Shown: positions 1 through 58,946 of the stretch, one piece after another | Position numbering within the stretch: the stretch's first letter is position 1 | How the letters are laid out: every line of letters starts with the position of its first letter | Source of the DNA: Candidatus Kaiserbacteria bacterium | Lineage (GTDB): Bacteria; Patescibacteriota; Minisyncoccia; Phycocordibacterales; UBA2100 | Assembly: GCA_016867375.1 (NCBI GenBank) | Contig: VGJQ01000002.1 | Coordinates: 368 to 64,367, forward strand | Direction: 5' to 3' | DNA: 64,000 nt | Translations under genes and position numbers: made by a program | Notes under the pieces: model-generated | The model's input: the letters and a program-made list of their open reading frames with translations, nothing else | The model's database searches: none | Told to the model about the DNA's origin: nothing

Positions 1-69
1 AGCAAGCACCTCGACGACAACGACTACTGACACCAGCACGAGCACCGCGACCGCCATATGACCACTACT

Positions 70-215
70 AAGGGCTCGTCCACACATAACGTACCCGTTA
101 TGTGTGGACTATACTTATGGTCCCGTTCATTTAGTGTTGAACTCATTTATGAACGGGACCAAAATGTCAAAAGTCAGACTTTCTACAAATGTAGAAAGTC
201 TGACTTTTGACATTC
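70..215. repeat. Composite palindromic repeat upstream of the HUH transposase gene: module A (70-160; contains inverted repeat GTCCACACATAACG..CGTTATGTGTGGAC) followed by a 48-bp nested palindrome TGTCAAAAGTCAGACTTTCTACA/TGTAGAAAGTCTGACTTTTGACA (165-212)
   Basis: Inverted repeats read directly in the sequence. Module A recurs at about 10 other sites in the window (13614, 19160 rc, 28999, 32110 rc, 33120 rc, 46944, 50335 rc, 59456, 63154). Confidence 0.8.
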
Positions 216-234
216 TTTCTGGTATACTTTTCGC

Positions 235-936
235 ATGCGGATAGAACCATACGGGATCGACTCATTTGTGCACGTAATGAAGCGTGGCGCGCGCGGACTA
301 CCCATCACGAGTGATATCGCGGATTGTTGGCGTTTTACCCGGCTCCTCTATCATATGAATGATGAATACAAATGTGACCCGTGGGAGAGAGATACTTTTG
401 GTATGGGGATTTTTGACAGGCCGAGCTCTTGGCCTGAACGTAGTCCTTTGGTAAAAGTACTCGCGTGGGTCCTGATGCCCAATCATTTCCATTTGGTATT
501 GAAAGAGATTCGTGAAGGAGGCGTATCAAAGTACATGCAGAAGATAGGTGGCAGTATGACGACTCACCATAATGCAAAACATGAAGAGAAGGGGAGTATA
601 TTTCAGGGTGCATTCAAGTCGCGGACGCTGGATGATGACTTCTACCTGAAACATGTCGCATCATACGTGATGGTGAAAAATGTTTTTGAGCTATATCCAG
701 GTGGATATGATCGTGCTGTTGCTGAGTTTGATAAGGCTTGGAAGTGGGCGGTAGAAGAATATCCGTTTTCGAGCCTTGCGGATTATGCGACCATGCGCAA
801 CTCGCCGATCCTAGAGAAAGACATCTTCGGTGAGTTGTTCCCGTCACCCGCTACGTTTAAAGCGCACTCAAAAGAAATGATAATGAACAGGACGGTGGAG
901 TCTCATACGGGGCTCTACAAAGCTGCGCTTGAGTAA
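235..936 (+). CDS. IS200/IS605-family HUH tyrosine transposase, REP-associated (RAYT/TnpA_REP-like)
   Basis: HUH motif LMPNHFHLVL, a downstream segment typical of Y1 transposases (IFQGAFKSRTLDDDFYLKHVASYVMVKN) and family-typical size of 233 aa. The gene is bracketed on both sides by palindromic repeats, as for REP/RAYT loci. Confidence 0.7.
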   Translation: MRIEPYGIDSFVHVMKRGARGLPITSDIADCWRFTRLLYHMNDEYKCDPWERDTFGMGIFDRPSSWPERSPLVKVLAWVLMPNHFHLVLKEIREGGVSKYMQKIGGSMTTHHNAKHEEKGSIFQGAFKSRTLDDDFYLKHVASYVMVKNVFELYPGGYDRAVAEFDKAWKWAVEEYPFSSLADYATMRNSPILEKDIFGELFPSPATFKAHSKEMIMNRTVESHTGLYKAALE

Positions 937-942
937 TGCAAA

Positions 943-1035
943 ATGTCAAAAGTCTGACTTTCTACATGGGACTCTGTCAAAAGTCAGACTTTTGACATTT
1001 TTCAGTGTCCTAGAGGCGTCGCCTCTAGGATTTTG
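943..1035. repeat. Downstream flank of the RAYT gene: half-palindrome ATGTCAAAAGTCTGACTTTCTACAT (943-967), perfect palindrome TGTCAAAAGTCAGACTTTTGACA (975-997), and hairpin CCTAGAGGCG-TC-GCCTCTAGG + TTTTGG (1009-1035), a likely terminator
   Basis: Palindromes read directly; same GTCAGAC-core hairpin family as 165-212. Confidence 0.75.
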
Positions 1036-5852: not shown

Positions 5853-7211
5853 ATGGATTACAAAAAAGTATATTTTATAGGTATCGGTGGGATCGGCATG
5901 TCTGGACTCGCGCAACTTCTGGTGCAGCAGGGCAAACAGGTGAGCGGCTCCGATAGGGAAGAATCGCCGACGACGGAGATGCTCGCGCGCAAAGGTATCA
6001 GTGTGACGATCGGGCAAACTGCGGACAATGTCGCACTGGATACAGACCTCGTGATCTACAGCGATGCGGTGTATGCCGACAATCCAGAGCGCATGCGCGC
6101 GGCGGACATGGGCATACCGCAATATTCATATTTCGAGGCACTCGGTGAAGTGTCGCGTAGTATGCGCACGATCGCCGTGGCGGGCACGCACGGCAAGACG
6201 ACCACCACTGGCATGCTCGCCAAGATGTTGTCGGATGCGGCGGTCGAGCCGACCGCAATCATCGGATCGATCGTACGCGATTTCGAATCCAACTACCTGC
6301 CCGGCAGACCCGATCTCTTTGTGGTAGAAGCATGCGAGTATAGGGATCACATCCTCAAACTCTCGCCCGAAATACTCGTCATCACCAATGTCGAGCTCGA
6401 TCACACCGACTATTTTCCCGACCTCGCCGCGCTCCAAGAGACGTTTCGCATTGCGGCAGAAAAAGTCCCCTCCTTCGCTCAAGCTTCGGAGGGCGGGCCT
6501 GCACAGGGCGGTGTCATTGTGACGAACCCAAGTGATCCCAATATCGCCCCCATTCTTCAAAATGTTACGGCAAAGGTGATCGATTACACTCAGGTACACA
6601 CACCGACGCTGCAGCTCATCGGCGAGTTTAATCGCGAGAATGCACAGGCGGCCAAGGCTGCGGCCTTGGCCGCATTTCCCGACCTCGACGAGCGCACGAT
6701 CGACGAATCACTCTCGTCATATCGAGGCGCATGGCGCCGATTTGAATACCGCGGCAAGACGCCGTCAGGTGCACTCGTCTACGACGACTACGCACATCAT
6801 CCGACCGCGATCATGAAGACGATCGAAGCAGCGCGCGCACGTTTTCCCGGCAAAAAGATAGTGGTCGCATTTCACCCTCACCTCTACAGCCGCACGAAGT
6901 CACTCATACATGAGTTTGCGGCAGCGCTTGCGACAGCCGATTTCGCTATCGTCGCACCCATCTACGCCGCGCGTGAAGCACTTGATCCGACTGTATCCAA
7001 CCATATTCTCGCAAAGCTCATCAATAGTACGATGCGGCAGGGGTACAAGTCAGACTTGTGCCTTGGCACAAGTCTGACTTGTGCCCCTGCAATCGCGATC
7101 GACTCATTCGACGAGATCCGCGATCGACTCCTGCAGGAAGGCGAAGACGCACTCATTATCACTATGGGCGCAGGGGATATTTATAAAGTAGCGCAGCAAA
7201 TCGCTGATTAG
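5853..7211 (+). CDS. murC: UDP-N-acetylmuramate--L-alanine ligase MurC
   Basis: N-terminus MDYKKVYFIGIGGIGMSGLAQLL and P-loop GTHGKTTTTGM. Carries an in-frame palindromic insert at 7046-7083. The track ORF starts at 5721 and runs through the tRNA-like element; ATG 5853 is preferred. Confidence 0.85.
   Translation: MDYKKVYFIGIGGIGMSGLAQLLVQQGKQVSGSDREESPTTEMLARKGISVTIGQTADNVALDTDLVIYSDAVYADNPERMRAADMGIPQYSYFEALGEVSRSMRTIAVAGTHGKTTTTGMLAKMLSDAAVEPTAIIGSIVRDFESNYLPGRPDLFVVEACEYRDHILKLSPEILVITNVELDHTDYFPDLAALQETFRIAAEKVPSFAQASEGGPAQGGVIVTNPSDPNIAPILQNVTAKVIDYTQVHTPTLQLIGEFNRENAQAAKAAALAAFPDLDERTIDESLSSYRGAWRRFEYRGKTPSGALVYDDYAHHPTAIMKTIEAARARFPGKKIVVAFHPHLYSRTKSLIHEFAAALATADFAIVAPIYAAREALDPTVSNHILAKLINSTMRQGYKSDLCLGTSLTCAPAIAIDSFDEIRDRLLQEGEDALIITMGAGDIYKVAQQIAD
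7046..7083. repeat. Nested perfect palindrome ACAAGTCAGACTTGTGCC-TT-GGCACAAGTCTGACTTGT (18-bp arms) embedded in frame in murC
   Basis: Read directly; same GTCAGAC hairpin family as the RAYT flanks. Encodes KSDLCLGTSLTC near the MurC C-terminus. Confidence 0.8.
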
Positions 7212-8976: not shown

Positions 8977-11166
8977 ATGTCGTCCGACCAGAAAAACGAC
9001 GATCGCCGGATCACCTATTTCGCCGCCACGCACACGCGCGGCAAGCGAGAGATGTTTGGTATCCGTGCGATTGATCGCGGCAAGCACATGTACGTGATCG
9101 GCAAGACGGGTATGGGCAAATCGACCATGCTCGAAAACATGGCGATCCAAGACATCCAAAATGGCGAAGGGATTGCCTATATCGACCCACATGGTTCGAC
9201 GGCCGACAAGCTTCTCGATTTCGTCCCATACGATCGCATCAAAGATGTCGTCTACTTCGCGCCGTTTGACGTCGATCATCCGCTCGGATTCAACGTGATG
9301 GAAGACGTCGGCTACGACAAGCGGCATCTCGTGGTTTCCGGCCTCATGGGGGCACTCAAGCGCATCTGGGTCGATGCGTGGAGTGCGCGCATGGAATACA
9401 TCCTGCAGAATACGCTCCTGGCGCTTCTCGAATACCCCGGCTCCAATCTTCTCGACGTCAATCGCATGCTTACCAACAAAACGTTCCGTACCGTAGTGGT
9501 CGAGAAGATCACCGACCCGATCGTGCGTGCATTTTGGACGGAAGAGTTTGCCAACTTCACCGACACCTATACGCGCGAGGCGACGCCAGCTATTCAAAAC
9601 AAAATCGGCCAGTTCACCGCTAATCCGCTCATACGCAACATCGTCGGCCAGTCGCACTCATCGTTTGATCTGCGCAAGATCATGGATGAGAAAAAGATAT
9701 TCATCGTAAATCTCTCAAAAGGCCGCATGGGCGAATCCAATGCATCGCTCTTGGGCTCGATGCTCACAGTCAAGATCTATCTCGCGGCGATGAGCCGCGC
9801 CGACGAGCCGCCCGCGCGCATGGCGCGGCTGCCGCGCTGTTATTTCTACGTGGACGAATTCCAGTCGATGATGAACGAAGCCTTCGCCGACATCCTCTCC
9901 GAATCGCGCAAATACAAGCTCGCGCTCACGCTCGCCAATCAGTACATCGAACAGATGGAAGAAAATGTCCGCGACGCCGTCTTCGGCAACGTCGGCACCT
10001 TGATCACATTTCGCGTGGGGCCGTTTGACGCCGAGACCCTAAAGACGGTATTTGAGCCGACCTTTACCGCCGAAGATTTGGTGGGCCTCGGTATCGGCGA
10101 AATATACCTCACACTCATGATCGACGGTGTGGGATCGGCGCCGTTTTCTGCGCAGACGATCCCGCCGATCGAAGCGCCCAACATCTCGTACCGCGAAGAT
10201 GTGATCACCCATTCACGCGAACACTACGGACGTCCGCGGCCCGAAGTCGAAAAAGCGATCACTGAGCGCCAGCGCGAGTTCATCCCGCCGCCACCCGAGC
10301 CCAAGAAAAAGCGCGAGTACGGCCGGCCAGGCGGTGGAAGCGGCATGATGGGCGGTGGCGGTGGCGGCGGAGGAGGCCCGTTTGGGCAGCCGCGCTCCAA
10401 CAATTTCAACAATACGCATACGCAGCAACAGGGCGGCCATGGTGCACCAGTGCGCGATGGCGGAGGATTTGCACCGCGTCCATCGATTCTCCCGCCACAT
10501 GTCGCGGCACAGGTACAGACACAGACACAGACACAGACGCAAGCCGAACCTTCTGCGCGAGAGAGTGTACAACAAACATCGTCCCCGTCTCCTGCGCGAG
10601 AGCATGTGCCACCGCTGGTACACGCGCGTACGTCGTCGCCTGTCGCTCCTGTGCGCCCGTACGCCGAGCAGTCGCGCGGACACTTCGTCCCTGCTGCGCG
10701 CAAAGACCCGAGCGATCCGCGCGATGCGCTTCGTGCTGCAATCAGTACCGCACGGAAAGCCGAAGAAGAGCATAACCGCCCAAAACCTGCCGAACGTTCT
10801 CCTCTCGACATCTTGCATGAGCGGAAGAAGACGCATGACACTCCCTCAAAGCATGAGGTTCCCCCAAAGCCTGAACGCGACGAGCGCCGATTTTCCCATG
10901 ATGTACGCGATAATCGCCCGTATCAGCATACGAATGATCAGCCGCCACGCGCGCATTATGCGAATGTACCGAAACCTTCGTATGGAGAGAGGGCCGACAG
11001 TGCTGGCATGGCGACGCCTACACACTCACAGGGATCATCTCCCGGCCCACGTCCGCAAGCGCGCCAAGAGACACCTCAAAAAGACTATAGTGATGGCACG
11101 GGTGAGATATCTCATGAGGTGCTCAGGAGTGTACTACGGCAGGATGATCGTGAGGGAGGGATGTGA
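8977..11166 (+). CDS. TraD/TrwB/VirD4-family P-loop ATPase (type IV coupling-protein-like, TrwB_AAD_bind-type) with a ~300-aa low-complexity Gly/Gln/Pro-rich C-terminal tail
   Basis: HMYVIGKTGMGKST Walker A, IAYIDPHGS, FYVDEFQSM Walker-B-like. Paralogous to 50440-53205. Start could be 8899. Confidence 0.75.
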   Translation: MSSDQKNDDRRITYFAATHTRGKREMFGIRAIDRGKHMYVIGKTGMGKSTMLENMAIQDIQNGEGIAYIDPHGSTADKLLDFVPYDRIKDVVYFAPFDVDHPLGFNVMEDVGYDKRHLVVSGLMGALKRIWVDAWSARMEYILQNTLLALLEYPGSNLLDVNRMLTNKTFRTVVVEKITDPIVRAFWTEEFANFTDTYTREATPAIQNKIGQFTANPLIRNIVGQSHSSFDLRKIMDEKKIFIVNLSKGRMGESNASLLGSMLTVKIYLAAMSRADEPPARMARLPRCYFYVDEFQSMMNEAFADILSESRKYKLALTLANQYIEQMEENVRDAVFGNVGTLITFRVGPFDAETLKTVFEPTFTAEDLVGLGIGEIYLTLMIDGVGSAPFSAQTIPPIEAPNISYREDVITHSREHYGRPRPEVEKAITERQREFIPPPPEPKKKREYGRPGGGSGMMGGGGGGGGGPFGQPRSNNFNNTHTQQQGGHGAPVRDGGGFAPRPSILPPHVAAQVQTQTQTQTQAEPSARESVQQTSSPSPAREHVPPLVHARTSSPVAPVRPYAEQSRGHFVPAARKDPSDPRDALRAAISTARKAEEEHNRPKPAERSPLDILHERKKTHDTPSKHEVPPKPERDERRFSHDVRDNRPYQHTNDQPPRAHYANVPKPSYGERADSAGMATPTHSQGSSPGPRPQARQETPQKDYSDGTGEISHEVLRSVLRQDDREGGM
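10516..10539. repeat. (CAGACA)4 hexanucleotide microsatellite inside the TraD-like tail (encodes QTQTQTQT)
   Basis: Read directly; in-frame unit of two codons. Confidence 0.8.
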
Positions 11167-13532: not shown

Positions 13533-13613
13533 CATGCATGGACAGCCTATAACCCCTTGGGTACGAGGGTCTTTCAGATCGTACCTCTCAGACATACTCA
13601 AGTGTCCACAGCT

Positions 13614-13796
13614 AAGGGCTCGTCCACAAATAACGTACCCATTATTTGTGGACTACACTTATGGGCCCGTTCATTTGGTGTTGAACTTATAAGTGCACAC
13701 TTGCATACATGACCAAAAGTCATGTATGCAGAAGTGAGCCTTATGAACGGGACCTAATATGCTATCTCTACGCTATAGCGCAGAGATAGCATACGT
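13614..13796. repeat. Composite repeat: module A (13614-13688), module C inverted (13691-13744; palindrome TGCATACATGAC-CAAAAG-TCATGTATGCA), then module D palindrome ATGCTATCTCTACGC-TATA-GCGCAGAGATAGCAT (13760-13796)
   Basis: Near-identical modules recur elsewhere (19099, 26484, 27385, 32056, 50251, 58234, 58947). Confidence 0.8.
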
Positions 13797-28927: not shown

Positions 28928-29273
28928 CCACCTACACTTATCTGTGCCTATAGGCACGGATAAGTGTAGGTGGTGGATGCATTGTTGTTTGGTCGTGTAA
29001 GGGTTCGTCCACAAATTAACGAATCCGTTATGTGTGGACTACACGTATGGGCCCGCTCATTTTGTGTTGAACTTACTTATGAACGAGCCCTTAGGGCTCG
29101 TCCGTAAATAAATCGACCCTCTCTGAGCTCATTGCATCGCCGACTACAACCACTCCTCAATCGCAAAAAGCTCATCGTACCTCGGGTACGCCTCGCTTTT
29201 TGCTCAATCGTCGCGGCCGTATTCGACGCGCACTGAGTCATATAGGGTCAATTTATTTACGGAAGAGCCCTAA
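28928..29273. mobile_element. MITE-like composite. 48-bp perfect palindrome CCACCTACACTTATCTGTGCCTATAGGCACGGATAAGTGTAGGTGG (28928-28975), module A (28999-29092), then a ~115-bp core bounded by ~26-bp terminal inverted repeats GGGCTCGTCCGTAAATAAATCGACCC / GGGTCAATTTATTTACGGAAGAGCCC (29093-29118, 29245-29270)
   Basis: Inverted repeats read directly; non-coding; left boundary of a repeat-bounded island. Confidence 0.65.
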
Positions 29274-32045: not shown

Positions 32046-32055
32046 AGAAGTTTTT

Positions 32056-32336
32056 AGGTCCCGTTCATAAGGCTCACTTCTGCATACATGACTTTTGGTC
32101 ATGTATGCAAGTGTGCACTTATAATTTCAACACAAAATGAACGGGCCCATAAGTGTAGTCCACAAATAACGAGTACGTTAATTTGTGGACGAGTCCTTAA
32201 AGTACTTGTTTATGATTCGCGGCCGCGAATCATAAACAAGTACTTTTATCCGGACAATATATTTTGGGATGTTCTAAGGCTTAACCTTAGAACAGATATG
32301 CTATCTTTGCGCTATAGCGTGGAGATAGCATACAGA
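32056..32336. repeat. Composite repeat: module C + module B (32056-32200), 46-bp perfect palindrome AAGTACTTGTTTATGATTCGCGG|CCGCGAATCATAAACAAGTACTT (32199-32246), palindrome GTTCTAAGG-CTTAA-CCTTAGAAC (32270-32292), module D (32297-32336)
   Basis: Read directly; right boundary of the two-gene island. Confidence 0.8.
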
Positions 32337-32414: not shown

Positions 32415-33116
32415 ATGTCCTATAGATCTCTTATTCATACGTGGTTTTGCGAACATGCTAAGGACCCGTCCATAAGGGCGGCCTTTTCCTCGATGGTGTT
32501 GCGGGTGCGCGCGGAGTGCAATGGGCACCATTGCACTACCGTGTATGATTGCATCGTTTCGGGGGAATATTACAATGTGCAGACGATGGCCTACTATTAT
32601 TCGCCGTTTCGGAAGGTATATGCAAAACCGTCTGAAGGGTGCCCTTTTTGTACAAGCGCCACGTTTGCAGAGCAGATCATCACTTCAGGGCACGGTATGG
32701 CAGTCGAGAATGAGCATTATCGATGGATCATTAATGCATATCCAAAATTTGAAGGCCATACCATGGTGGTGCCTAAGCGTCATGTGACTACTCTTGGCGA
32801 TGAGAGTGCTGAAGAAATTGTCGCTCGGGAAGAGCTCATTGTGTTGGCGTCAAACACACTTCGGAAGCTGTATCCAGGGTCGGGAATTGAAGTATTTATA
32901 CAAACAGGAGAGGGTTCAGAAAGTAGCGTAGCCCATTTGCACTGGCATGTAGTGCCTTCACTTCCCGAGGATCATCTGCGCGGCTTTGACAAACTCGGTC
33001 ATTTCTTTACGATTGAGCAAGACAAGGAAAAGGTAATCGTCTTTCCGGTGCCGATTCGATTGGCACAAAGCGATCTCCTCAACGCCTTGAGAGATGTTCT
33101 TAGGTCCCGTTCATAA
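32415..33116 (+). CDS. HIT-superfamily (GalT/Ap4A-phosphorylase-like) nucleotidyl hydrolase or transferase
   Basis: Histidine-triad-like HLHWHVVP and a CPFC zinc-knuckle-like motif. The 3' end and stop codon lie inside a module B repeat. Confidence 0.55.
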   Translation: MSYRSLIHTWFCEHAKDPSIRAAFSSMVLRVRAECNGHHCTTVYDCIVSGEYYNVQTMAYYYSPFRKVYAKPSEGCPFCTSATFAEQIITSGHGMAVENEHYRWIINAYPKFEGHTMVVPKRHVTTLGDESAEEIVAREELIVLASNTLRKLYPGSGIEVFIQTGEGSESSVAHLHWHVVPSLPEDHLRGFDKLGHFFTIEQDKEKVIVFPVPIRLAQSDLLNALRDVLRSRS

Positions 33117-33194
33117 ATAATTTCAACACCAAATGAACGGGTCCATAAGTGTAGTCCACAAATAACGAGTACGTTATTTGTGGACGAGCCCTTA
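33099..33194. repeat. Module B copy overlapping the last ~6 codons and stop of the HIT-family gene
   Basis: GGTCCCGTTCAT..GTTATTTGTGGACGAGCCCTTA. Confidence 0.75.
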
Positions 33195-33219: not shown

Positions 33220-33500
33220 ATGAAAGCAATCATAATGGCTGGTGGTCGTGGAACGCGACTGGGTCTTTTAACGCATGACAACGTGAATAAACACATGTTG
33301 CCGGTCTACGATCGTCCCATGATCGAATATGTCATACAGACCTTGGTAAAAGGTGGACTCACTGACATTCGCGTCTCTCTGAATTAGAGCAATCCTCAGA
33401 TTTTGATGGCACAGCTCGAAGATGGTGCGCGTCTCGGATGCGACATCCACTACATGTATCATCGCGGCGCGTTTGCGGGGCCTGCCAGACACTTTCTCCA
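33220..33500 (+). pseudogene. Glucose-1-phosphate thymidylyl/uridylyltransferase (RfbA/nucleotidyl-transferase) remnant: 56 intact N-terminal codons, stop, then a frameshifted ~30 codons of residual similarity, then unrelated sequence
   Basis: MKAIIMAGGRGTRLGLLTHDNVNKHMLPVYDRPMIEYVIQTLVKGGLTDIRV aligns with the RfbA N-terminus (MKGIILAGGSGTRLYPLT..KQLLPVYDKPMIYY). A stop at 33385 and loss of homology afterwards. Confidence 0.55.
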
Positions 33501-33794
33501 TTGTGATAGGATAGTAGTGCTTTGTCAATACATCAAGAGCAATGTGTTGTTTTTGATGTGTGAGCACAAACATACAAGTCTGACTTGTTCAAAACAAAGT
33601 TATACACAAGCGTGTATCGATGCGGCTTTTTATGCGATAAAATTGACATGGTTTTTATTTTTTATTAAACGGCAATCGTTTACCTGTCGAGGCGCGAGAC
33701 GTCTCTCGAAGTATGGCCCATATACGGAAAAGCAACCGCTTTTCCCGGCAAAACCATGCTCTCGAGAACAAGTCATGCATAATTACTGAACATC

Positions 33795-36700
33795 ATGCGA
33801 AACATAATACGTTTCTTTGGCGCGTTGGGTATTTTATCAGTGTTTCTTTTTACGGGGCTCCACATCGCCTCCGCCGCGATCACGTCGAATACGGCCGCTG
33901 ATCTCACCATCACGGGGCAGACGATCAAAGCCTCGTCGACGCCGCTTGCGGTCATCGGGTTGAACGTCGCTGTAAATGCGGGTGAAAAACTCGCCTCGAC
34001 CTCGATCATGATCGCCGGCTCGAACGGCTTCGCGGTCGCGACCGACCTCGCCCCCCTCGGCACGGCGACATCGTCGGGTATCGCGCTCTACCGCGACACC
34101 AACGGCAACGGCCGCTTCGATGCGGCGGCGGATACCGTCGTCCCGCTTGCAAGCGCACCTGTCTTCACAGGCGCCACGACCACACTTTCGCTCACCGGGG
34201 CGGGCGAAACGCCCATCTCGAACGCGGGCGGCAACAACTACTTCCTCGTCGTGCAAACCGCTGGCGCAGCGGTGAATGGGCACGCGTTCACCGTGAGCAT
34301 CTATCCTGGCAACATTCAGTACAGCTCGGCCACTCCCGCTGGCTCGCCGACGGCCCTCACCACGAATACCATTACCGTCGACACGACGGCGCCCGCGCTC
34401 AATGCGGGCATGACGGGCCCCATGAACGGCTCGACCGGTGTACCCATCTCGACCTTTATCCACATGGGCTTCAATGAAAACCTCGACCAGACGACCCTTA
34501 ATTCATCCAACATCACTCTCACCGCGGGCGGCTCGCCCGTGGGCATCGCGGTACGACCCTTCCCCGACGGCTTCGATGTGGTCGTCTCCAACCCGCCCTC
34601 CTATGCGGCAAGTTCGCGCTTCGCCAAAGCCTCGACCGTCTCCACGGGCTTCTTCGGCGTCAACGGCACCAACACCATCTTCCCGCAGGGCACTTATACC
34701 GCGCCTGTGGTGGGCGATATCGTCTTCACCCAGTTCGACACCTTCGCGCCCGATATCGGCATCGTGACCAACAACACGCTTACCTCGGGCACCTTCGGCG
34801 TGAACGGTTTTGCGCTCTTCCGCCCTGCACAGATCACCAAATTCGCCGTGCCGAATTCGATCGGCGCTGTAACCGCGGCGACGGGTGTGGGCATAGGCGA
34901 TCTCATAGTCGTCAATACGAGCGCTAACCCGACCGACGTCAAGTACAACTGGCACGTCGTTACGACGGCGGACGCCGTCAATGGCGCGAGCTTGCGCCTC
35001 GACGGTTCGGGCGCCGCGCCCACGTACCAGAGCGGCTCATCGTTTAGCCGCCTTTTGCCCGCCGCGACTTCGACAGTCAATGGCTCGGGCGTCTTGAATG
35101 CCTCGACGACGTTTGCCGTGGGTGATCTTGTCTTCGCCCATCTTTCTGCAGGCGGGGATAATCTCAACCGGTACGCGTGGCATCTCGTGACCGCCGTTAC
35201 GGGCGCGGGCATTCTCGGCCCGCAGGGCGGTGGCGGCACCATTTCGCTCGACGGCGGTACGCCCACCTTTGCCAATAACTCGGTCGTCGCCAAGTTGACG
35301 ACCGCGGGCAACGGCGCCGTCGATACAGGCACTCCAGACGCTACAAGCTTCTCCTTCGGCGACATCATGTTCTCCAAAGTGACGGCAAACGCGGGCAACA
35401 CCGGTTCGTACGCCTTCCACATGATCTCAAACGGCGCCACCGGCGCGACCTCGACCGCGTTGCGCCTCGACAACAGCGCGTCCAATCTCCTACCCTCGAC
35501 CGCGTACGTCGCGACCGCAAGCACGGGAGTCAAGGATGCGGCGGGCAACGCTCTTGCATCACCCGTCACGCTCTCCTTCACCACCGGCTCGACCGGCGGC
35601 ACCAACACGACGCCCCCCGCAGTCATGAACACCCAGCCGCAGCAGGGCAACCAGCAATTCGCCCCCAATGGCAAAATTGCGTTGACCTTCAGCGTGACGA
35701 TGCTCGCCGACGGCGGCGCCAATGCCGTCAATAACGCGGCGGTCGTCGTGCTCTCGACGTCGGTCAATGGCGCACCGGGTTCCGCGGTGACGGCTACGCG
35801 CAGCTATGACGCGACAACCAACACGCTCACCGTCACGCCGAGCGCCAATCTTGCCACGAATACCGAGTATGTCGTTCAGGTGACGACCGCCGCGCGCACG
35901 ACGACCGGCGTTTCGATGCCCGGCGAGTATCGCCTGTACTTCCGCACGGCTTCGGCGGTCGACAACACGGCCCCGACCGTCCCCGGCGTCAACCCCGCCG
36001 CAGGTTCGACCGGCATTTCGCTCTCGCAAGTCTTTACCGCCGGATTCTCCAAAGACATGGATCCGGCGACCGTCTCGACGAGCACCGTCAAGCTCCTTAC
36101 GCAAGTCGGCGGTACGGCCGTCGCAGGCAACGTCTCGTACAACCCCATGAGCCGCTCGGCCAATTTCGTGCCGTCGGTCGTGCTCAACACCTCGACCGGG
36201 TACCGCTTCCAGATCGGCGCGGGCCTCACCGGGCCGGCGGATCTTGCCGGCAATCGTCTCGCCGCGACGTCAACTTCGTTTGCGACGACGACGGCATCGG
36301 CCGATGCGGTATCACCGATCGTCTCCTTCGCGAGCGCCGACAACTTCGGCATCGCCGTCACTTTCTCCGAGACGATGAAAACCGGCAGCGGCCCCAATGC
36401 GGCCGACAACATTGCCAACTACACGCTCGAAAGTCCGACGGGCACTTCGATCTCGCTCGGCGGAAAGACGGTCGTCTATGACGCCGGCACCAGGACGGCG
36501 CGTATCTCGGGCCTTTCGCTCCAAAACGGCAACACCTTCAAGGTGACGATCGCCACGCCCGTGCAAGATCTTGCGGGCAACGGCATCTCGACCGCCGGAA
36601 CACCCGCAGGCAATCTCTCTTTCGGCACCGTACAAAGCTCCTCAATGACGGGCGGCCAGCTTGGCCCCGGCACCGGCACGATGGATCAATCGCAGCAGGG

Positions 36701-39700
36701 TATGAATCCGATTCGCGTGAGTCCGATGAGCCGTAGCGCGGGGGTTATATCGCAGTACAACGTAACGTTTCCCGCCGCGACCTCGATTCCGCTTGGCGGT
36801 CAGATTGTGCTCACCTTCCCCTCCGGTTTCGACGTGACAAATGCCGCGATGGTCGCCACCTCCTCGAACGCCTCATTCTGCAACACCGACGTCAACGGCC
36901 CCATGAGCGGTTCGCCGTACATCTTGAGCGTGTCGAACGACGCCAATGCCGGCACCATCACGCTCAATACCGCCGGCGCCGCATCCGGCGCAAACGCGTT
37001 CGTTTGCCTCGACATCGCGGGCATCGTGAATTCGACCGTGCCGTCCACTGCCGGGTACGTCGTTGACCTCAAAACGCGCGACACCGCCGGCAATAACCGC
37101 GCGATTCTCGAAACAAAGAGCGCGGCGCCGTTCTTCCTCGGCGTTGCGGGCACACGCACGCTCACCGTCAATGTCTTCAACGACGGCAACGCAAACAGCA
37201 CGATCAACGCCAATGAAGGCATCGGTAACGTAAAGGTATTTCTGTTCTCGCCAGCGTCCGGAGGACAAATGGCGACGACATCCGCATCGGGTGTTGCGAC
37301 GTTTACCTCGCTCGCCGACGGCGATTACATGCTCGGCCTCGATCCAGGCTCACTCGCGACTGCCTCCTCGACCGTCACCTACAATTCCGCGCCTCAAAAC
37401 TTCACCGTCTCGGCCACCACGCTTGTCAAAAACATCATCGTCTCGGGCGCGGGCAGCACCGTAACGATCTCCGGCACGATCACCGGCCCGTCGGGCACGT
37501 CGATCGACATCTTCGCTTCAAGCCCCAACGGTTTCTCCAAGAAAACGATGACTCTGACCGCCGGCCCCGATGCGTACTCGATCCCCGTTCAGACCAACAG
37601 CACGTACAACATCGGCGTCGGTCCGGCAATGCCCGACACCGCCTTCATCCCGGGCGCTCCGCCACCGCCACCGCCGACGTTCACCTTCATGCCGCCGCCG
37701 TCCTTGATGGTCACGGTCGCTACCACCTCGGTTTCGGGCAAGAACTTCACCCTCTCGAGCGCCTCGAAGACGATCACCGGATCGGTCTTGGATTCCGCGG
37801 GCAACGCCGTATCGAACGCCGGCGTCTTCGCGCGCCCCGTCTCCAATTCGACCGGCGCGGGCGGCGCATCGGGATCGGATCTCGGCTTCGGCACCGGCGG
37901 CATGACCAACACCTCGGGCGCGTTCACGCTCAATGTGGTGCCGGGCACGTACCTCGTCGGCGTGTTCAAGCCGGGTATGCCCAACGTGCCGGATCAGCAA
38001 ATCACCGTGCCGTCGAGCGGCGCCAACACGCCTTCCTCGCTTACCTTCAAGCTCGGCGTCGGCTCGTCGCTCACCATATCGGGTACCGTCAAGGATGACA
38101 GCGGCAATGCGGTACCATATTCCGGCGTTTCCGGCCGCAAAATCACCTCGACATCCGATACGACGCCGATCGGCGGCGGGCAGGGCAACTTCGTCGGCGG
38201 GCCGGCCGACGCCAACGGCGCTTACACGCTCTACGTCACCAACGGTGTCTGGCAAATCGAGGCCTATGCACCGGGCTTCGGGAAGCTCGGCTCCAAGACC
38301 ATTACCGTAGCAGGCTCCTCGCTCTCCGGCCAAGACTTCTCGGCCCAAACGCTTTCGATTGGCACGATTACCGGCTCGACGACCGTGGCATCGGCCGGCG
38401 TGCAGGGTGTGATCGTCCGCGCCGAGGGCGCCAACGGCGCCAACATGGCCGTCTCGGATGCGACCGGCTCGTATAGCCTCAAGGTCCCGGCCGGCACCTA
38501 CACGCTCACGTGCGTCTTCCCGGGACAGGGCGATTCGACCCCGACGACCGGTGTTGCCGTCACGGCCAACAACACTACGAGCGGCCAAGATTGTGCGCTT
38601 GCCGCGCCGATCACCGTCACCGTCAGGCTCACCGACGGCACCAATCCGATCACCAACGCCTTCGTCGACGCGCGCACCTCGACCGGCCGTGGCAATGGCA
38701 CCGGCGACAACGCCACGAGCAGTATCTACGGCGTCTACACGCTCACGCTCGCGCCGGGCACGTACACTATCCGCGCGGGCAGTCCCGCATTCGGCCCCAT
38801 CGGCTCGACCGCCGGGGTCTCCTCGACGCAAACCATCACCTACACAACGCCTAAACTCTACAGCGTAACGGGCACCGTCTCGGCCTCGGGTGTGGGTGCG
38901 ATTAACACATGGGTATCGCTCACGGGAACGCCCACAGGCCAGACCAACATCATTACGACCGGTTCGCAAACGGGCGCGGGCGGCGCCTTCGCGATCTCCG
39001 TGCCGGCGGGGAGTTACCAGATCCGCGCGGACAAACCGGGTTTCATCTCATCGACGCCTTCGACTGTCACCGTCACCGGCGATACCGCGGCGGGGACGCT
39101 CGCGCTCACGACCGCATCCCTCACGATCTCGGGCCAGGTCACGTTGTCGGGTAGCGGCGTCTCGGGCGCATTCGTCGACGCGACGAACGGCTCGGGTGGC
39201 TTTGCAGTAGCGCAAACTGACGCTTCCGGTAACTATTCGCTCGCCGTTTCTTCGGGTACATGGACGGTAACCGCGCGCTCGATAGGGTATTCAGGTGCGA
39301 CAACCGCCTCGGTGGTCGGCGGATCCGCCTCGGGGCAAAACATTGCGCTTTCGGCGATCAGCGGCTTCACGGTCAGGCCCGAGCGCCAGGAAAACGTCAC
39401 GCCGACCATGGGCGGCCTCCTCACTAATTCCGACATCGGCAACGCCTTCAAACTCAACATTCCGGCGAACGCCTTGGGCACCGGTTCAAACGCGGGTACG
39501 GTCAAGACGCAGAACAATACCGCGCTTCCCAATATCGTCAACGGCACCGTGCTCGCTAAAAGCGGCGTTTCGATCAGTGCGGTCGATGCGTCCGGCCAGC
39601 CGGTGAAAAACCTCAACGATAGCGTTACGATTACCGTACCTTACAACGAAAGCGATATTCCGAGCGGCCGATCAGAGAGTGATTTGCAACTCGGCGTGTG

Positions 39701-40751
39701 GAATGATGCGACGGCTGCGTACGACATCCTCCCGACCACGGTCGATGCGGTGAACAATACTTTGACCGCGACCGTGTCCCACTTCTCGGATTTCGCGCCG
39801 ATAGTCCCTGCACAATCGACGACTCCCGGCGTGACGCCCGCAAGCACCCCCGTTGGCAATGGTGCGCCGGTGGGCGGCGGAGGCGGAGGCGGAGGCGGTT
39901 CCACAGGCCCCGCGCCGCGTGCGCAGATCATCTATCCGGATGGTCGTATCGTGTACCTCGATCAGATGAACGGTTCGGAAGCGAAGGTGACCGCTGCTGC
40001 GGCGCCTGCCCAATTCACGAACGCTCCGAAGTCTCTCTCCGACATTCATATCGGCACCACTGTTTCCGGTCGCTTCGTTGCTGCGCTCAAACAAGGTTCA
40101 CGCGGCAAGGACGTTTCGCGCCTGCAAAAGCTCCTTGGCGTCGAAGAAACGGGTTACTTCGGTCTCAAGACCGTAAAAGCCGTGCAAGAATTTCAGCTCA
40201 CTTACGGTGTCGTAAAGAAAAACGGCTCTGGTTACGGGTTGCTCGGCCCCAAGACACGCGCCAAACTCGAAGAAGTATTTTCTTCGAGAGCGATATCGGC
40301 GCAAGCGAGTGCACAAGGACAAACGTCGAGCGGCAACGCTTCGGCTGTTGCAGCCGTCCCGTTCACGCGCACACTCACGGTGGGGATGACAGGCGACGAC
40401 GTGAAGCTTCTCCAGATCATCCTCAACGGCGATCCCGATACGCGGCTTGCCGCATCGGGCGACGGCAGCCCCGGTATGGAGACAAACAAGATTGGCCGCC
40501 TCACCATAAGAGCCATTGAGAAGTTCCAGATCAAACATGGGCTTGTCAAGAAAGGTGCGAGCGGTTTCGGCAATCTCGGCCCCAAGACACGCGCCAAGTT
40601 GAACGAAATCCTCACGGCGCCGGTCGTGGTGACGGAAACAGTCGTCGCGACTTCCTCGCCATCCGTCCCTTCGGTCGCTACGACGACGGCAGCGTCGGCT
40701 GGCGCAACGGTGACGGCAACGACGACCGTCGCCACCAGCACCGCGCAATAG
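33795..40751 (+). CDS. Giant cell-surface protein (2318 aa): signal peptide, many Ig-like and carboxypeptidase-regulatory-like beta-sandwich repeats, Gly9 and Pro6 linkers, two C-terminal peptidoglycan-binding (PGBD-type) repeats
   Basis: Single uninterrupted ORF. N-terminus MRNIIRFFGALGILSVFLFTGLHIASA. Recurrent ..TGSV.D..G..V..A.V......G.Y.L.V..G.Y.. modules. Two copies of LKQGSRGKDVSRLQKLLG..GYFG..T..AV..FQ...GL...G..G.LGPKTRAKL at the C-terminus. Confidence 0.8.
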   Translation: MRNIIRFFGALGILSVFLFTGLHIASAAITSNTAADLTITGQTIKASSTPLAVIGLNVAVNAGEKLASTSIMIAGSNGFAVATDLAPLGTATSSGIALYRDTNGNGRFDAAADTVVPLASAPVFTGATTTLSLTGAGETPISNAGGNNYFLVVQTAGAAVNGHAFTVSIYPGNIQYSSATPAGSPTALTTNTITVDTTAPALNAGMTGPMNGSTGVPISTFIHMGFNENLDQTTLNSSNITLTAGGSPVGIAVRPFPDGFDVVVSNPPSYAASSRFAKASTVSTGFFGVNGTNTIFPQGTYTAPVVGDIVFTQFDTFAPDIGIVTNNTLTSGTFGVNGFALFRPAQITKFAVPNSIGAVTAATGVGIGDLIVVNTSANPTDVKYNWHVVTTADAVNGASLRLDGSGAAPTYQSGSSFSRLLPAATSTVNGSGVLNASTTFAVGDLVFAHLSAGGDNLNRYAWHLVTAVTGAGILGPQGGGGTISLDGGTPTFANNSVVAKLTTAGNGAVDTGTPDATSFSFGDIMFSKVTANAGNTGSYAFHMISNGATGATSTALRLDNSASNLLPSTAYVATASTGVKDAAGNALASPVTLSFTTGSTGGTNTTPPAVMNTQPQQGNQQFAPNGKIALTFSVTMLADGGANAVNNAAVVVLSTSVNGAPGSAVTATRSYDATTNTLTVTPSANLATNTEYVVQVTTAARTTTGVSMPGEYRLYFRTASAVDNTAPTVPGVNPAAGSTGISLSQVFTAGFSKDMDPATVSTSTVKLLTQVGGTAVAGNVSYNPMSRSANFVPSVVLNTSTGYRFQIGAGLTGPADLAGNRLAATSTSFATTTASADAVSPIVSFASADNFGIAVTFSETMKTGSGPNAADNIANYTLESPTGTSISLGGKTVVYDAGTRTARISGLSLQNGNTFKVTIATPVQDLAGNGISTAGTPAGNLSFGTVQSSSMTGGQLGPGTGTMDQSQQGMNPIRVSPMSRSAGVISQYNVTFPAATSIPLGGQIVLTFPSGFDVTNAAMVATSSNASFCNTDVNGPMSGSPYILSVSNDANAGTITLNTAGAASGANAFVCLDIAGIVNSTVPSTAGYVVDLKTRDTAGNNRAILETKSAAPFFLGVAGTRTLTVNVFNDGNANSTINANEGIGNVKVFLFSPASGGQMATTSASGVATFTSLADGDYMLGLDPGSLATASSTVTYNSAPQNFTVSATTLVKNIIVSGAGSTVTISGTITGPSGTSIDIFASSPNGFSKKTMTLTAGPDAYSIPVQTNSTYNIGVGPAMPDTAFIPGAPPPPPPTFTFMPPPSLMVTVATTSVSGKNFTLSSASKTITGSVLDSAGNAVSNAGVFARPVSNSTGAGGASGSDLGFGTGGMTNTSGAFTLNVVPGTYLVGVFKPGMPNVPDQQITVPSSGANTPSSLTFKLGVGSSLTISGTVKDDSGNAVPYSGVSGRKITSTSDTTPIGGGQGNFVGGPADANGAYTLYVTNGVWQIEAYAPGFGKLGSKTITVAGSSLSGQDFSAQTLSIGTITGSTTVASAGVQGVIVRAEGANGANMAVSDATGSYSLKVPAGTYTLTCVFPGQGDSTPTTGVAVTANNTTSGQDCALAAPITVTVRLTDGTNPITNAFVDARTSTGRGNGTGDNATSSIYGVYTLTLAPGTYTIRAGSPAFGPIGSTAGVSSTQTITYTTPKLYSVTGTVSASGVGAINTWVSLTGTPTGQTNIITTGSQTGAGGAFAISVPAGSYQIRADKPGFISSTPSTVTVTGDTAAGTLALTTASLTISGQVTLSGSGVSGAFVDATNGSGGFAVAQTDASGNYSLAVSSGTWTVTARSIGYSGATTASVVGGSASGQNIALSAISGFTVRPERQENVTPTMGGLLTNSDIGNAFKLNIPANALGTGSNAGTVKTQNNTALPNIVNGTVLAKSGVSISAVDASGQPVKNLNDSVTITVPYNESDIPSGRSESDLQLGVWNDATAAYDILPTTVDAVNNTLTATVSHFSDFAPIVPAQSTTPGVTPASTPVGNGAPVGGGGGGGGGSTGPAPRAQIIYPDGRIVYLDQMNGSEAKVTAAAAPAQFTNAPKSLSDIHIGTTVSGRFVAALKQGSRGKDVSRLQKLLGVEETGYFGLKTVKAVQEFQLTYGVVKKNGSGYGLLGPKTRAKLEEVFSSRAISAQASAQGQTSSGNASAVAAVPFTRTLTVGMTGDDVKLLQIILNGDPDTRLAASGDGSPGMETNKIGRLTIRAIEKFQIKHGLVKKGASGFGNLGPKTRAKLNEILTAPVVVTETVVATSSPSVPSVATTTAASAGATVTATTTVATSTAQ

Positions 40752-45934: not shown

Positions 45935-45969
45935 GGCGCGGGATTCTTTTTATTTTTTTTGGTATAGTG
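45935..45969 (+). promoter_or_regulatory. First copy of a 33-bp direct repeat GCGGGATTCTTTTTATTTTTTTGGTATAGT containing an extended -10 (TGgTATAGT); second copy at 47630-47664
   Basis: Direct repeats bracket the hicBA/phd-relE island; -10-like hexamer TATAGT at 45964-45969. Confidence 0.5.
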
Positions 45970-46041
45970 TCGCAGGTCGGGCTTATGACACTAGCGAGGA
46001 ATTCATTTTGTATATGGGTAGATTCGGGGTATACTACAAAT

Positions 46042-46326
46042 ATGAAAAAGCGCGCCAAGAAGATCAAGACGGAGGTACAGACCGATTACGGATTGTTCGC
46101 GGTTGTGCTTGAGAGCGAACCCGATATGGGTGGGTACATGATAACGGTGCCGAAAGTACCACCTGTAATTACGTGTGGAAGAAACATAACACATGCCAAA
46201 GAAATGGCTCGCGAGGCGATCGAATTAACGCTTGAGACGCAAACACTCCATGCTGCAGAGCAGGCAGGTCGGATCAAGTTCACAAAGAAAGCGTCATTGC
46301 CGGCTCATGGTGTTGCTTTTGCATGA
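46042..46326 (+). CDS. hicB: HicB-family antitoxin
   Basis: GGYMITVPKVPPVITCGRNITHAKEMAREAIELTLE matches the HicB N-terminal RNase-H-like domain. TATACT sits 6 nt upstream of the ATG, so the mRNA is possibly leaderless. Track ORF starts at 45967 (GTG). Confidence 0.65.
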   Translation: MKKRAKKIKTEVQTDYGLFAVVLESEPDMGGYMITVPKVPPVITCGRNITHAKEMAREAIELTLETQTLHAAEQAGRIKFTKKASLPAHGVAFA

Positions 46327-46544
46327 GCACATTGCCGATACTTTCGGCGCGAGAAACGATGCGCCGACTCATACGGCTCGGATTTCGCGTTGAAGGATAT
46401 CGGGGAAGTCATGCGATATTGGTGCACGATCGAACAGGACGGGAAACCACCGTACCGATGCATCCAGGCGACCTTGGCCGGAAGTTGCTCTCCGGCATCA
46501 TCAAACAATCCGGCGTGAATCTTCAGGATTTTCTGAGTGCGTAA
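46323..46544 (+). CDS. hicA: HicA-family toxin (mRNA interferase)
   Basis: RLIRLGFRVEGYRGSHAILVHDRTGRETTVPMHPGDLGRKLLSGIIKQSGV has the HicA dsRBD-like fold signature (GSH..vp.H). 4-nt overlap with hicB. Confidence 0.7.
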   Translation: MSTLPILSARETMRRLIRLGFRVEGYRGSHAILVHDRTGRETTVPMHPGDLGRKLLSGIIKQSGVNLQDFLSA

Positions 46545-46670
46545 GATAGAGAGTGGTCGATATAATCACGATTGGCGGCACGGCGCTTCCCATCGCATCT
46601 GCGTAGTCCTCGACCTCGTCAAAAAGATCGACGCGCAGACGAGTATAAGGGTTCATTTTGAATACAGTAA

Positions 46671-46913
46671 ATGATGAGGTATAATGTAAATGTGAATATT
46701 ATAACCATTCCACAAAGAATCATATCGAACGACGATCTCGTTATCATCCCTCGCAAGGAGTACGAGGCGCTCAAGGCGCGGCCGGTTGTCGCTGAGTTTG
46801 CGCCATCATCGGCGCAGGTGCGCACACTCTCCCGTGCACGCAAGCATTTCAAAGAGGGCAAAACCATTTCCTATGATGAAATCGTCAAGCGAGTGGCGGC
46901 TCGCGGTCGATAA
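46671..46913 (+). CDS. Phd/YefM-type antitoxin
   Basis: IITIPQRIISNDDLVIIPRKEYEALKA matches the Phd/YefM N-terminal pattern (..pvvItrrgkpvaVlls.eeYeaL). A relE-like remnant lies downstream. Confidence 0.55.
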   Translation: MMRYNVNVNIITIPQRIISNDDLVIIPRKEYEALKARPVVAEFAPSSAQVRTLSRARKHFKEGKTISYDEIVKRVAARGR

Positions 46914-46943
46914 CAGTGTCGACAAAATGCTCGGTCGCATCCC

Positions 46944-47035
46944 GCATAAGGGCTCGTCCACACATAATGTACCCATTATTTGTGGACTACACTTATGGGC
47001 CCGTTCATTTGGTGTTGAACTTCGGGACCTAAGGA
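46944..47035. repeat. Module A repeat inserted between the phd-like antitoxin and the truncated relE
   Basis: AAGGGCTCGTCCACACATAATGTACCCATTATTTGTGGACTACACTTATGGGCCCGTTCATTTGGTGTTGAAC. Confidence 0.8.
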
Positions 47036-47048
47036 TGCGGAAGCCCTG

Positions 47049-47231
47049 TTGGATGTCGTTGCGTCCCTCGTCATCAATCCATTCTTGGGTGATATTCAGA
47101 AGATGAAAGGCAAAGACAACGTTTGGCGCAGACGTATCGGCGCATATCGTATATTCTTCGAGATTTACCCATTGGTACGAATTGTGCATGTGTATCACAT
47201 CGAACGCCGCACATCGTCGACATATCGATAG
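47049..47231 (+). pseudogene. relE: RelE/ParE-family toxin lacking its N-terminal ~25 codons (5' truncation coincident with the module A insertion)
   Basis: ..NPFLGDIQKMKGKDNVWRRRIGAYRIFFEIYPLVRIVHVYHIERRTSSTY aligns with the RelE C-terminal two-thirds. There is no in-frame ATG; an upstream in-frame stop lies at 47016, inside the repeat. Confidence 0.55.
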
Positions 47232-47305
47232 TATTCGGGAGTATTGACGTGCAGGCAATACCCAATTACTATCTGCCTCAGACGTAATCAGGAAAGGGTA
47301 AGGAT

Positions 47306-50250: not shown

Positions 50251-50412
50251 TTAGGTCCCATTCATAAATTAAGGCTCACTTTTGCTATGCAAGTGTGCAC
50301 TTATGGGCCGATGTATATTCTTATACATCGGCCCGAAGTTCAACACAAAATGAACGGGCCCATACGTGTAGTCCACAAATAATGTACCCGTTATGTGTGG
50401 ACGAGCCCTTAA
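50251..50412. repeat. Composite repeat: module C deletion variant (50262-50310), perfect palindrome GGGCCGATGTATA-TTCT-TATACATCGGCCC (50302-50331), module B (50335-50412)
   Basis: Read directly. Confidence 0.8.
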
Positions 50413-53205: not shown

Positions 53206-53207
53206 CG

Positions 53208-53231
53208 CGTATACAGGTCTGACCTGTGTAC
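53208..53231. repeat. Palindrome GTATACAGGTC-T-GACCTGTGTAC (GTC-N-GAC hairpin family); a second copy at 53722-53746 brackets the small membrane-protein cassette
   Basis: Read directly. Confidence 0.75.
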
Positions 53232-53271
53232 GTGCGGGAATGGGTGCAAATATGGGGTGCAAATATGGGGA

Positions 53272-53349: not shown

Positions 53350-53670
53350 ATGTTGGCACTGTTTGGGCTTTTTATCATCGTCGGCGCACTCTTTGCTTAT
53401 ATCGCAGGGCGTACGCGCTGTCTGTCTCGCGGCCCGAGTATACTCTGCGAAGCTTTTGCATGGGTTGCGACAGGGACAGGGTCACTTGGCTATACATTAC
53501 GCTTCGGCGTTAAGAATGGGCCAATGCCTAACCCCGGCTCAACCGACTACTTTCTCCATACGGTCCATATAGGACTTATCATCTGGCTTACGATGATAGT
53601 CATTGGCGTAGTGGTCCTCATAAGCAAAGAATGTGGACGGAAGGGAAAGCCGCTTATGTTCAAGTTCTGA
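53350..53670 (+). CDS. Small integral membrane protein (106 aa, 3 TM helices)
   Basis: Strong SD (AAGGAG), own promoter, hydrophobic sequence. Confidence 0.6.
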   Translation: MLALFGLFIIVGALFAYIAGRTRCLSRGPSILCEAFAWVATGTGSLGYTLRFGVKNGPMPNPGSTDYFLHTVHIGLIIWLTMIVIGVVVLISKECGRKGKPLMFKF

Positions 53671-58911: not shown

Positions 58912-58946
58912 TTTCCCATACCCATCCACAACTTCGCAAAATTTCG

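Follow-up and report, generated by a model that had tools for sequence, protein, structure and literature searches.

Does a 64,000-nucleotide stretch of DNA from a Candidatus Kaiserbacteria bacterium (contig VGJQ01000002.1; hereafter the window), with a Y1/HUH-type transposase gene close to its start and palindromic repeats along its whole length, hold one repeat system or more than one? RAYTs (REP-associated tyrosine transposases, where REP stands for repetitive extragenic palindromic) are the classic example of transposases that bacteria have domesticated, each living with a population of short mobile hairpins of its own. They have been characterised almost exclusively in Proteobacteria, Cyanobacteria and Bacteroidetes. 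The original prediction, made from the letters of the window, was that the open reading frame (ORF) at positions 235–936 is such a gene, nested in palindromes, and that four module types (A/B, C, D and hairpins with a GTC-N-GAC core) seeded across the window make up one modular REP system, comparable to the composite mosaics known as bacterial interspersed mosaic elements (BIMEs). The analysis presented here suggests that two unrelated repeat systems probably overlap in the window. One would be a REPtron-like unit at positions 165–1041, in which a RAYT-type Y1 gene is bracketed by its cognate hairpins, and the other a population of miniature inverted-repeat transposable elements (MITEs) of the ISAzo13 family.

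The proposed unit comprises the following features:

165–212, + strand: upstream cognate hairpin doublet, with arms at 165–187 and 190–212, each of the form TGTnnnAAGTC-W-GACTTnnnACA

200–228, + strand: promoter-like site, with a −35-like CTGACT within the hairpin arm, a 17-nt spacer and a TG-n-TATACT extended −10

235–936, + strand: Y1/HUH single-strand DNA transposase gene, RAYT-like, identified through Pfam, alignments, an AlphaFold model and a fold match

944–997, + strand: downstream cognate hairpins, with one arm at 944–966 and a perfect 23-nt palindrome at 975–997, TGTCAAAAGTCAGACTTTTGACA

1007–1041, + strand: intrinsic-terminator-like hairpin followed by a T tract, which ends the unit ahead of murA

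The ORF at 235–936 encodes a genuine RAYT-like Y1/HUH single-strand DNA transposase. The protein has 233 amino acids, with the IS200/RAYT-type HUH motif that had drawn attention to it, MPNHFHLVL, at residues 81–89, and its proposed membership of Y1_Tnp (Pfam PF01797) holds at 28.5 bits, above the cut-off of 23. The two histidines of the motif (H84 and H86) and a tyrosine, Y144, are invariant or nearly so across 106 sequences, as are N149 and Q124 in the alignments of the family, and the protein ends in a C-terminal helical extension of ∼80 amino acids. Because a sequence-only search of the PDB gave merely marginal matches to ISDra2 (E ∼0.1), a fold search was needed. The AlphaFold model (pLDDT 91.5) places Y144 on a helix spanning residues 135–151, and Foldseek matched it to 4ER8, 2XM3 and 2A6M, each with a probability of 1.00, indicating a TnpA-like fold. 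The top structure was 4ER8, the E. coli TnpA-REP with a REP hairpin (E 5e-6), with the TnpA proteins of ISDra2 and IS608 next. A homologue search returned 670 matches, of which those with a named source come from Patescibacteria (Kaiser-, Taylor-, Nomura-, Adler-, Wolfe- and Yanofskybacteria), with lengths of ∼232 amino acids and identities of 55–85%; an exhaustive profile search yielded 148 cluster representatives at E ≤ 1e-30. Some members of the family have already been labeled “transposase” or “RayT” by automated annotation.

The upstream 48-nt palindrome at 165–212, made up of TGTCAAAAGTCAGACTTTCTACA and the complementary sequence as inverted arms, folds as DNA into a 24-bp hairpin of −25.1 kcal/mol (z −10.4); the downstream flank at 944–997 reaches −21.7 kcal/mol as DNA (z −9.9). 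The claim of nested palindromes on both sides of the gene therefore stands for these cognate hairpins, and falls for module A, which lies beside the gene on one side only.

Across the Patescibacteria homologues, such hairpins are the family-wide partner of the Y1 gene. In a survey of 80 Y1 loci from 69 species-representative genomes, all metagenome-assembled (MAGs), the longest word common to both flanks was a palindrome in ∼70 loci, which bears out the pairing of gene and cognate hairpin. The typical flank hairpin reads TGTnnnRGTC-W-GACYnnnACA, with variant cores such as GACACnnnGTGTC and GCCTGGC in remoter clades. The upstream hairpin is found 10–45 nt 5′ of the ATG, and the downstream one after the stop codon or overlapping it. 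In counts made without conditioning on pairing, 35 kb of gene flanks contain 137 GTCNGAC cores and the other 1.23 Mb only 238, a ∼20-fold enrichment, and the proportion that extend by at least 4 bp as a perfect palindrome is 75% in the flanks and 12% outside them. When 134 distinct flank hairpin sites are aligned without gaps, it can further be seen that the stems vary among genomes with their complementarity kept, and that the apex GTC-W-GAC is conserved: 91.2% of the cells are paired (64% in shuffles, 33–36% in slid controls), both sides are changed in 420 cells versus 125, and the covariation score of 0.657, versus 0.159, was reached by none of 500 shuffles. The orientation of the central W was also considered as a marker of upstream versus downstream hairpins, and rejected; direct and inverted combinations are mixed.

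The upstream hairpin also overlaps the signals for expression of the gene. Since the −10 ends 6 nt ahead of the ATG, the mRNA is probably leaderless, and boxes of the TGnTAnAAT type are present between hairpin and ATG in homologous loci too. With the −35 region inside the hairpin, autoregulation of the Y1 gene is possible.

Judging from its paralogs, which are divergent, and from its neighbourhoods, which are conserved within subclades, the Y1 family appears to behave like RAYTs and not like an active insertion sequence (IS). Two Y1 loci are present in 11 of the 69 genomes, with the paralogs 45–69% identical and each possessing its own stem variant; among these 11 two-locus genomes, species-representative MAGs only, no pair within a genome exceeds 69% identity. 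The genes gapA-rpiB-rpe lie downstream of the Y1 gene in 11 loci, and in a second subclade grpE lies upstream and dnaK downstream in 5–7 loci. Compared with its nearest relative, L008 (85% amino acid identity), the window gene shows a dN of 0.10 and a saturated dS.

A side observation concerns this second neighbourhood. The Y1 gene and its hairpins are placed directly upstream of dnaK in L056, L057, L060, L065, L068, L073 and L087 (at ∼10001–10700 in each), and grpE is upstream in 5 of those 7 loci, which puts the Y1 gene within a heat-shock gene cluster.

Hairpins of this kind also occur away from the gene. Outside the gene flanks, 28 extended GTCNGAC palindromes were found in 1.23 Mb of Y1-bearing loci, where shuffling predicts ∼2, and none in 0.54 Mb of metagenome loci without a Y1 match; these counts are for loci and the 64-kb window, not for whole genomes. 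Four dispersed sites are present in the window (7045/7065, 33574, 53213 and 53723), and the GTC-N-GAC hairpins noted there belong, as originally proposed, to the same hairpin family as the Y1 flanks:

7037–7090, + strand: GTCWGAC hairpin doublet in murC, in frame, adding 14 residues, YKSDLCLGTSLTCA

33574–33588, + strand: single dispersed hairpin, ACAAGTCTGACTTGT, with sequence identity to the murC arms

53205–53235, + strand: dispersed hairpin containing ACAGGTCTGACCTGT, right after the stop codon of the gene at 50440–53205 (z −5.3)

53723–53743, + strand: dispersed hairpin, TACACAGGTCTGACCTGTGTA, which together with 53205–53235 flanks the ORF at 53350–53670

The murC doublet, of 42 nt, forms a 25-bp hairpin of −29.5 kcal/mol. 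Exactly its 14 codons are missing from the two closest homologues of MurC compared (62.5% identical in L033, 65.6% in L044), so that it represents a fresh in-frame insertion event, and the insertion reported inside murC is thus confirmed. The hairpin at 33574–33588 is weak alone (z −1.5), and its membership of the family rests on its identity to the murC arms. The two near-identical GTCTGAC hairpins between 53205 and 53743 are in direct orientation around an ORF (53350–53670) for a membrane protein of 106 amino acids. This ORF has its own promoter and terminator, in a layout like that around the Y1 gene, and may be a hairpin-flanked passenger cassette.

The dominant repeat of the window is module A. 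It measures ∼92 nt, not the 75 bp first given, and has ∼10 copies in both orientations. These, and a related 183-nt element, are as follows:

69–160, + strand: module A MITE (TIR match, where TIR is terminal inverted repeat), adjoining the Y1 unit and not part of it

13613–13757, + strand: module A MITE with module B (13687–13751) nested in its second hairpin loop, followed by module C at 13756–13793

19095–19238, − strand: module A MITE with nested module B (19101–19162), which gives a NUDIX gene its stop codon

28998–29093, + strand: module A MITE (repeat family and TIR match)

29091–29273, + strand: 183-nt MITE with 23-nt TIRs (22/23 matched) and termini as in module A (TIR match)

32054–32199, − strand: module A MITE with nested module B (32060–32125) (TIR match)

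33100–33194, − strand: “empty” module A MITE (no module B), which gives a HIT gene its last five codons and stop

46947–47032, + strand: module A MITE of 86 nt, splitting a parE/relE-family toxin gene; excision in silico restores the ORF

50251–50411, − strand: module A MITE, carrying module B in deleted form plus an additional hairpin module (TIR match)

Module A is also present in a mini form (59455), a truncated form (63152) and a decayed form (8864).

To judge from their termini, module A and the 183-nt element are MITEs of the ISAzo13 family and are unrelated to the Y1 enzyme. The ends of module A agree with the 23-nt TIRs of the element at 29091–29273 in 16–18 of 23 positions, and a search for such 23-nt ends (≤7 mismatches) found 15 sites in the window against 1.25 in shuffles. 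The TIR, T[AT]AGGGCTCGTCCnnAAATAA, is common to module A, the 183-nt element and elements of ∼1358 nt that encode a DDE-type transposase. A metagenome scan with AGGGCTCGTCCNNAAATAA matched more than 111 loci; among the matches listed, nearly all are preceded by CT[AT], at least 28 loci hold TIR-bounded elements of ∼1.3–1.4 kb encoding an ISAzo13-type transposase, and dozens are MITEs of 85–233 nt. The ORF of one locus, L156, matches PF07592 (DDE_Tnp_ISAZ013) with an E of 1.4e-138. The metagenome elements are flanked as C/TTA..TTA/G or C/TAA..TAA/G, which corresponds to a 3-bp TWA duplication, and a 93-nt MITE from L166, a metagenome contig with no relation to the window, shares 76% identity with module A across 90 nt. 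No module A TIR ends were found in the 80 other Y1 loci (1.26 Mb). The exact 28-nt module A pattern had no match in genome or metagenome contigs, the closest Y1-bearing genome included, and only the shorter TIR pattern was informative in the contig scans. With ∼10 copies per 64 kb, the presence of one next to the Y1 gene can be explained by chance.

As a separate observation, many ISAzo13-type MITEs from unrelated metagenomes with a GC content of 0.31–0.52 (L089, L118, L120, L132, L142, L148, L163, L165–L167, L174, L191, L194 and L199) possess a common hairpin immediately internal to the left TIR, CC[RY][AT]AAATAA-loop-TTATTT[AT][RY]GG. Module A has it too, suggesting that this hairpin is conserved across the MITE lineage.

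Insertions of module A have affected genes. The repeat said to truncate a relE is indeed a module A copy (46947–47032) in a parE/relE gene, and its removal restores an ORF of 90 residues with a Pfam ParE_toxin match of 28.8 bits. Other copies give the stop or last codons to NUDIX, HIT and GT4 genes, and a preference for TAA/TTA targets would explain this abutting of stop codons. The repeats had been described as biologically active; the insertions are real, and they come from two agents, a hairpin doublet in murC and a DDE-type MITE in relE/parE. The split gene lies in a toxin-antitoxin cluster (45967–47258) with a HicA toxin gene at 46323–46544 (Pfam HicA_toxin). The ORF upstream of it (45967–46326) is by its appearance a candidate HicB partner, and an antitoxin-like ORF (46671–46913) and the disrupted parE/relE gene adjoin these HicA genes.

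Modules B and C make up two palindromic families of their own, assigned to neither system. Module B, ∼50 nt long and nearly all hairpin, has five copies (at 13687, 19101, 27379, 32060 and 50270), three of them nested in the second hairpin loop of module A. Comparison of filled and empty module A is consistent with a clean 50-nt insertion between ATAA/ATAA with no duplication; a TA/TAA target duplication was considered for module B and rejected on the basis of this comparison. Module C is a 38-nt palindrome, also with five copies (13756–13793, 26483–26520, 32295–32332, 58232–58269 and 58946–58983), located 58–166 nt upstream of ORF starts. Two of these are on either side of a gene for a PaaX-like regulator (58342–58911), and module C may be an operator, possibly of this regulator, rather than a mobile repeat.

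The repeats are unlikely to be artefacts of this assembly, because contigs of the same strain from independent Logan assemblies (L001, L002 and L088; SRR7985589, SRR16108666), in which the repeats are likewise multi-copy, start or end inside module A or B hairpins. No empty sites were recovered from these contigs, which end within the repeats. Among the recurrences originally listed, that at 28928 is a single-copy palindrome, and all others are real members of repeat families. Modules A, B and C all lack the conserved GTCWGAC apex, and BLAST found no match to them in the 80 other Y1 loci. These two observations, together with the ISAzo13 TIRs of module A, argue against the three modules as REP/BIME-type substrates: the expected resemblance to the Y1 flanks holds for the GTC-N-GAC hairpins and not for A, B or C, and the notion of a modular, multi-family REP system is unsupported, given that the dominant repeat appears to be a DDE-type MITE.

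How the two systems might work can be proposed from their relatives. By analogy with E. coli TnpA-REP and the TnpA of IS608 and ISDra2, the Y1 enzyme would bind the hairpin when this is extruded on single-stranded DNA, would read the invariant apex and the TGT/ACA foot, and would cut and rejoin beside the hairpin through Tyr144 and a metal bound by the HUH motif. Hairpin singlets and doublets would then spread at a low rate, with the Y1 gene staying in place; homology and the murC insertion suggest that the enzyme does move hairpins. Module A and the 29091 element would be moved in trans by an ISAzo13-type transposase encoded outside the window, with TAA/TTA as preferred sites.

A number of observations weigh against this explanation. 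The Y1 protein scores 38.9 bits with the NCBIfam equivalog REP_Tyr_transpos, under the cut-off of 80, and the tyrosine motif of the family, Y[IV][ML]VKN[VP] (Y-x4-N-[VP]), is one residue longer than Y-x3-NP. The flank hairpins are without the 5′ GT[AG]G tag of canonical REPs, and the dispersed hairpins average ∼1 per 44 kb, ∼10-fold rarer than classical REPs. The hairpins could have a purely regulatory role, given their terminator-like pattern and their overlap with the promoter. With regard to the MITEs, tblastn found no match to an ISAzo13-type transposase in the 64-kb window, and the module A copies there are bounded by TAA...TAA, which could be a target duplication or part of the repeat. 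Finally, the stems of the dispersed hairpins in the window, ACAAGTC and ACAGGTC, differ from the AAAAGTC beside the gene. The ACAAGTC class flanks a paralog upstream of rpmE in L018, L021 and L026. Since this class is among the dispersed stems of the window, a second Y1 paralog likely lies outside the window, predicted to be flanked by ACAAGTCWGACTTGT as in those three loci, and the dispersed hairpins may answer to it.

Other explanations can be weighed against the proposal of two overlapping systems. A single REP/BIME-like system, with all modules (A/B, C, D and GTC-N-GAC) spread by the RAYT, would account for the module A copy directly upstream of the Y1 gene, for modules that are hairpin-rich, mainly intergenic and arranged in mosaics, and for the entry of module B into module A loops with no target duplication, as for a Y1-type insertion. 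It is nonetheless highly improbable. The ISAzo13 TIRs, the TWA flanks and the full-length DDE-encoding relatives largely refute it for module A, which in addition occupies only one flank of the gene, and modules A, B and C, which do not have the apex, were not found in 1.26 Mb of other genomes with the Y1 gene.

The two remaining alternatives concern the Y1 unit itself, and both are unlikely, the first somewhat less so. The hairpin-gene-hairpin unit could be an autonomous IS200-like IS that is still transposing, with the solitary hairpins as its remnants or as derivatives resembling palindrome-associated transposable elements (PATEs). Similar subterminal hairpins at both ends of the Y1 gene are indeed the architecture of the IS200/IS605 family, the downstream neighbour differs (murA in the window, gapA in L008), and the hairpins at 53205 and 53723 bracket a passenger-like ORF. 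A search of the window for gapA, rpiB and rpe, made to test for a hairpin-mediated rearrangement, found none of them. On the other hand, an IS that still moves would not be expected to lack near-identical copies in every genome, with paralogs as divergent as those described above, or to keep its synteny among proteins just 45–60% identical; the Y1 gene is also under strong purifying selection, and its tyrosine motif and length are unlike those of IS200 TnpA (∼150 amino acids, Y-x3-Q; PMC6006769). Alternatively, the palindromes could be regulatory or insulating, as an autoregulatory operator and/or bidirectional terminators, and not be moved by the Y1 protein at all. The overlap of the upstream hairpin with the −35 region, the T-rich tracts after both hairpins, which matched in a terminator-like scan, and the small number of copies away from the gene would all agree with such a role, but the in-frame 42-nt doublet in murC, missing in homologues, is an insertion event, control loci that lack the gene contain no extended palindromes, and a double-stranded DNA operator has no need of stems that vary freely and yet remain complementary.

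Compared with known REP/RAYT systems (E. coli YafM/TnpA-REP; class 2 TnpA-Y1, PMC6006769), the Y1 unit shares the Y1/HUH fold, with 4ER8 as the best structure, the position of the gene between cognate hairpins, a separate hairpin variant for each paralog, a low copy number (one or two per genome, divergent from each other), apparent vertical inheritance, conserved synteny, and hairpin doublets (resembling REPINs, or REP doublets) as well as in-frame insertions into genes, which have been reported for REPs (PMC6006769). It differs in that the conserved parts of the hairpin are the apex GTC-W-GAC and the TGT/ACA foot, with no 5′ GT[AG]G tag, in its Y-x4-N-[VP] as opposed to Y-x3-NP, in the longer protein with its ∼80-residue helical C-terminal extension, in the low number of dispersed copies, and in its Patescibacteria hosts. 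By term search, Patescibacteria are unmentioned in the RAYT surveys of 2017–2018 (PMC5581495, PMC6006769), and term searches of the searchable literature turned up no description of RAYT or REP in Patescibacteria or the Candidate Phyla Radiation (CPR); K07491 came up once, in passing, for an archaeon.

A described group that the Y1 protein resembles in motifs and length is TnpA-Y1 subclass 2.1, equal to RAYT Group 1 (PMC5581495; Quentin 2018), with a median length of 238 amino acids, an HUH motif NH[YF]H (here NHFH), “FQ” in place of the W motif (here FQG) and a C-terminal extension. Flanking repeats are scarce in RAYT Group 1, with 12 occurrences of the flanking 16-mer (PMC5581495), and the density of dispersed hairpins reported here is nearer that of Groups 1 and 4 (PMC5581495) than that of classical REPs. 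In contrast, subclass 2.1 was reported without REP-like hairpins and with some TIRYT inverted repeats, whereas clear hairpins are found here on both sides of the gene. With the IS200/IS605 elements (IS608, ISDra2) and PATEs, the Y1 unit has in common similar subterminal hairpins at both ends, the absence of terminal inverted repeats, and short derivatives that consist of the hairpin only; IS200 differs in having copies ∼99% identical (PMC6006769), where the paralogs of the Y1 family are divergent and syntenic. The 23-nt TIR and the TWA flanks of the ISAzo13 elements and their MITEs (PF07592) recur in module A and in the 183-nt element, with the differences that the window contains non-autonomous copies only, and that module A, often with module B nested in it, possesses a second, internal repeat-like arm.

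Two other regions of the window were noted. Two tRNA-like pieces, called by neither ARAGORN nor Rfam, are found at 19294–19660: a tRNA(CAU)-like gene, with its 5′ half at 19374–19408 and its 3′ half at 19622–19657, separated by a ∼213-nt spacer without an Rfam match, and a further copy of the tRNA 5′ half at 19294–19345, with a 32-nt palindrome in its D-loop. A giant ORF of 2318 amino acids spans 33795–40751, with a GC content of ∼0.63 against ∼0.53 for the rest of the window. Directly 5′ of it are an N-terminal fragment of an NTP_transferase (33220–33387) and the single hairpin at 33574.

The broader interpretation is that of a vertically inherited RAYT-type system across Paceibacteria, with a new kind of REP (an apex and a TGT/ACA foot, without the 5′ GTAG guide), stems that co-evolve with their paralogs, in-frame doublets in essential genes and pairs that bracket passengers; the case for this is about evenly balanced. 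If true, no other REP/RAYT-like system would have been defined earlier in ultra-small CPR genomes, and the family would constitute a new TnpA-Y1 subclass. The RAYT lifestyle would here be found in the tightly packed, ∼1-Mb genomes of Patescibacteria, and a conserved, syntenic family with a different logic of hairpin recognition, through the apex, would provide a compact natural system for studying why RAYTs are retained and how Y1 enzymes read hairpins. There is also a practical warning, that dense, hairpin-rich repeats beside a RAYT are not necessarily its substrates: most such repeats in this window appear to be DDE-type MITEs, which break up CPR assemblies and disrupt genes.

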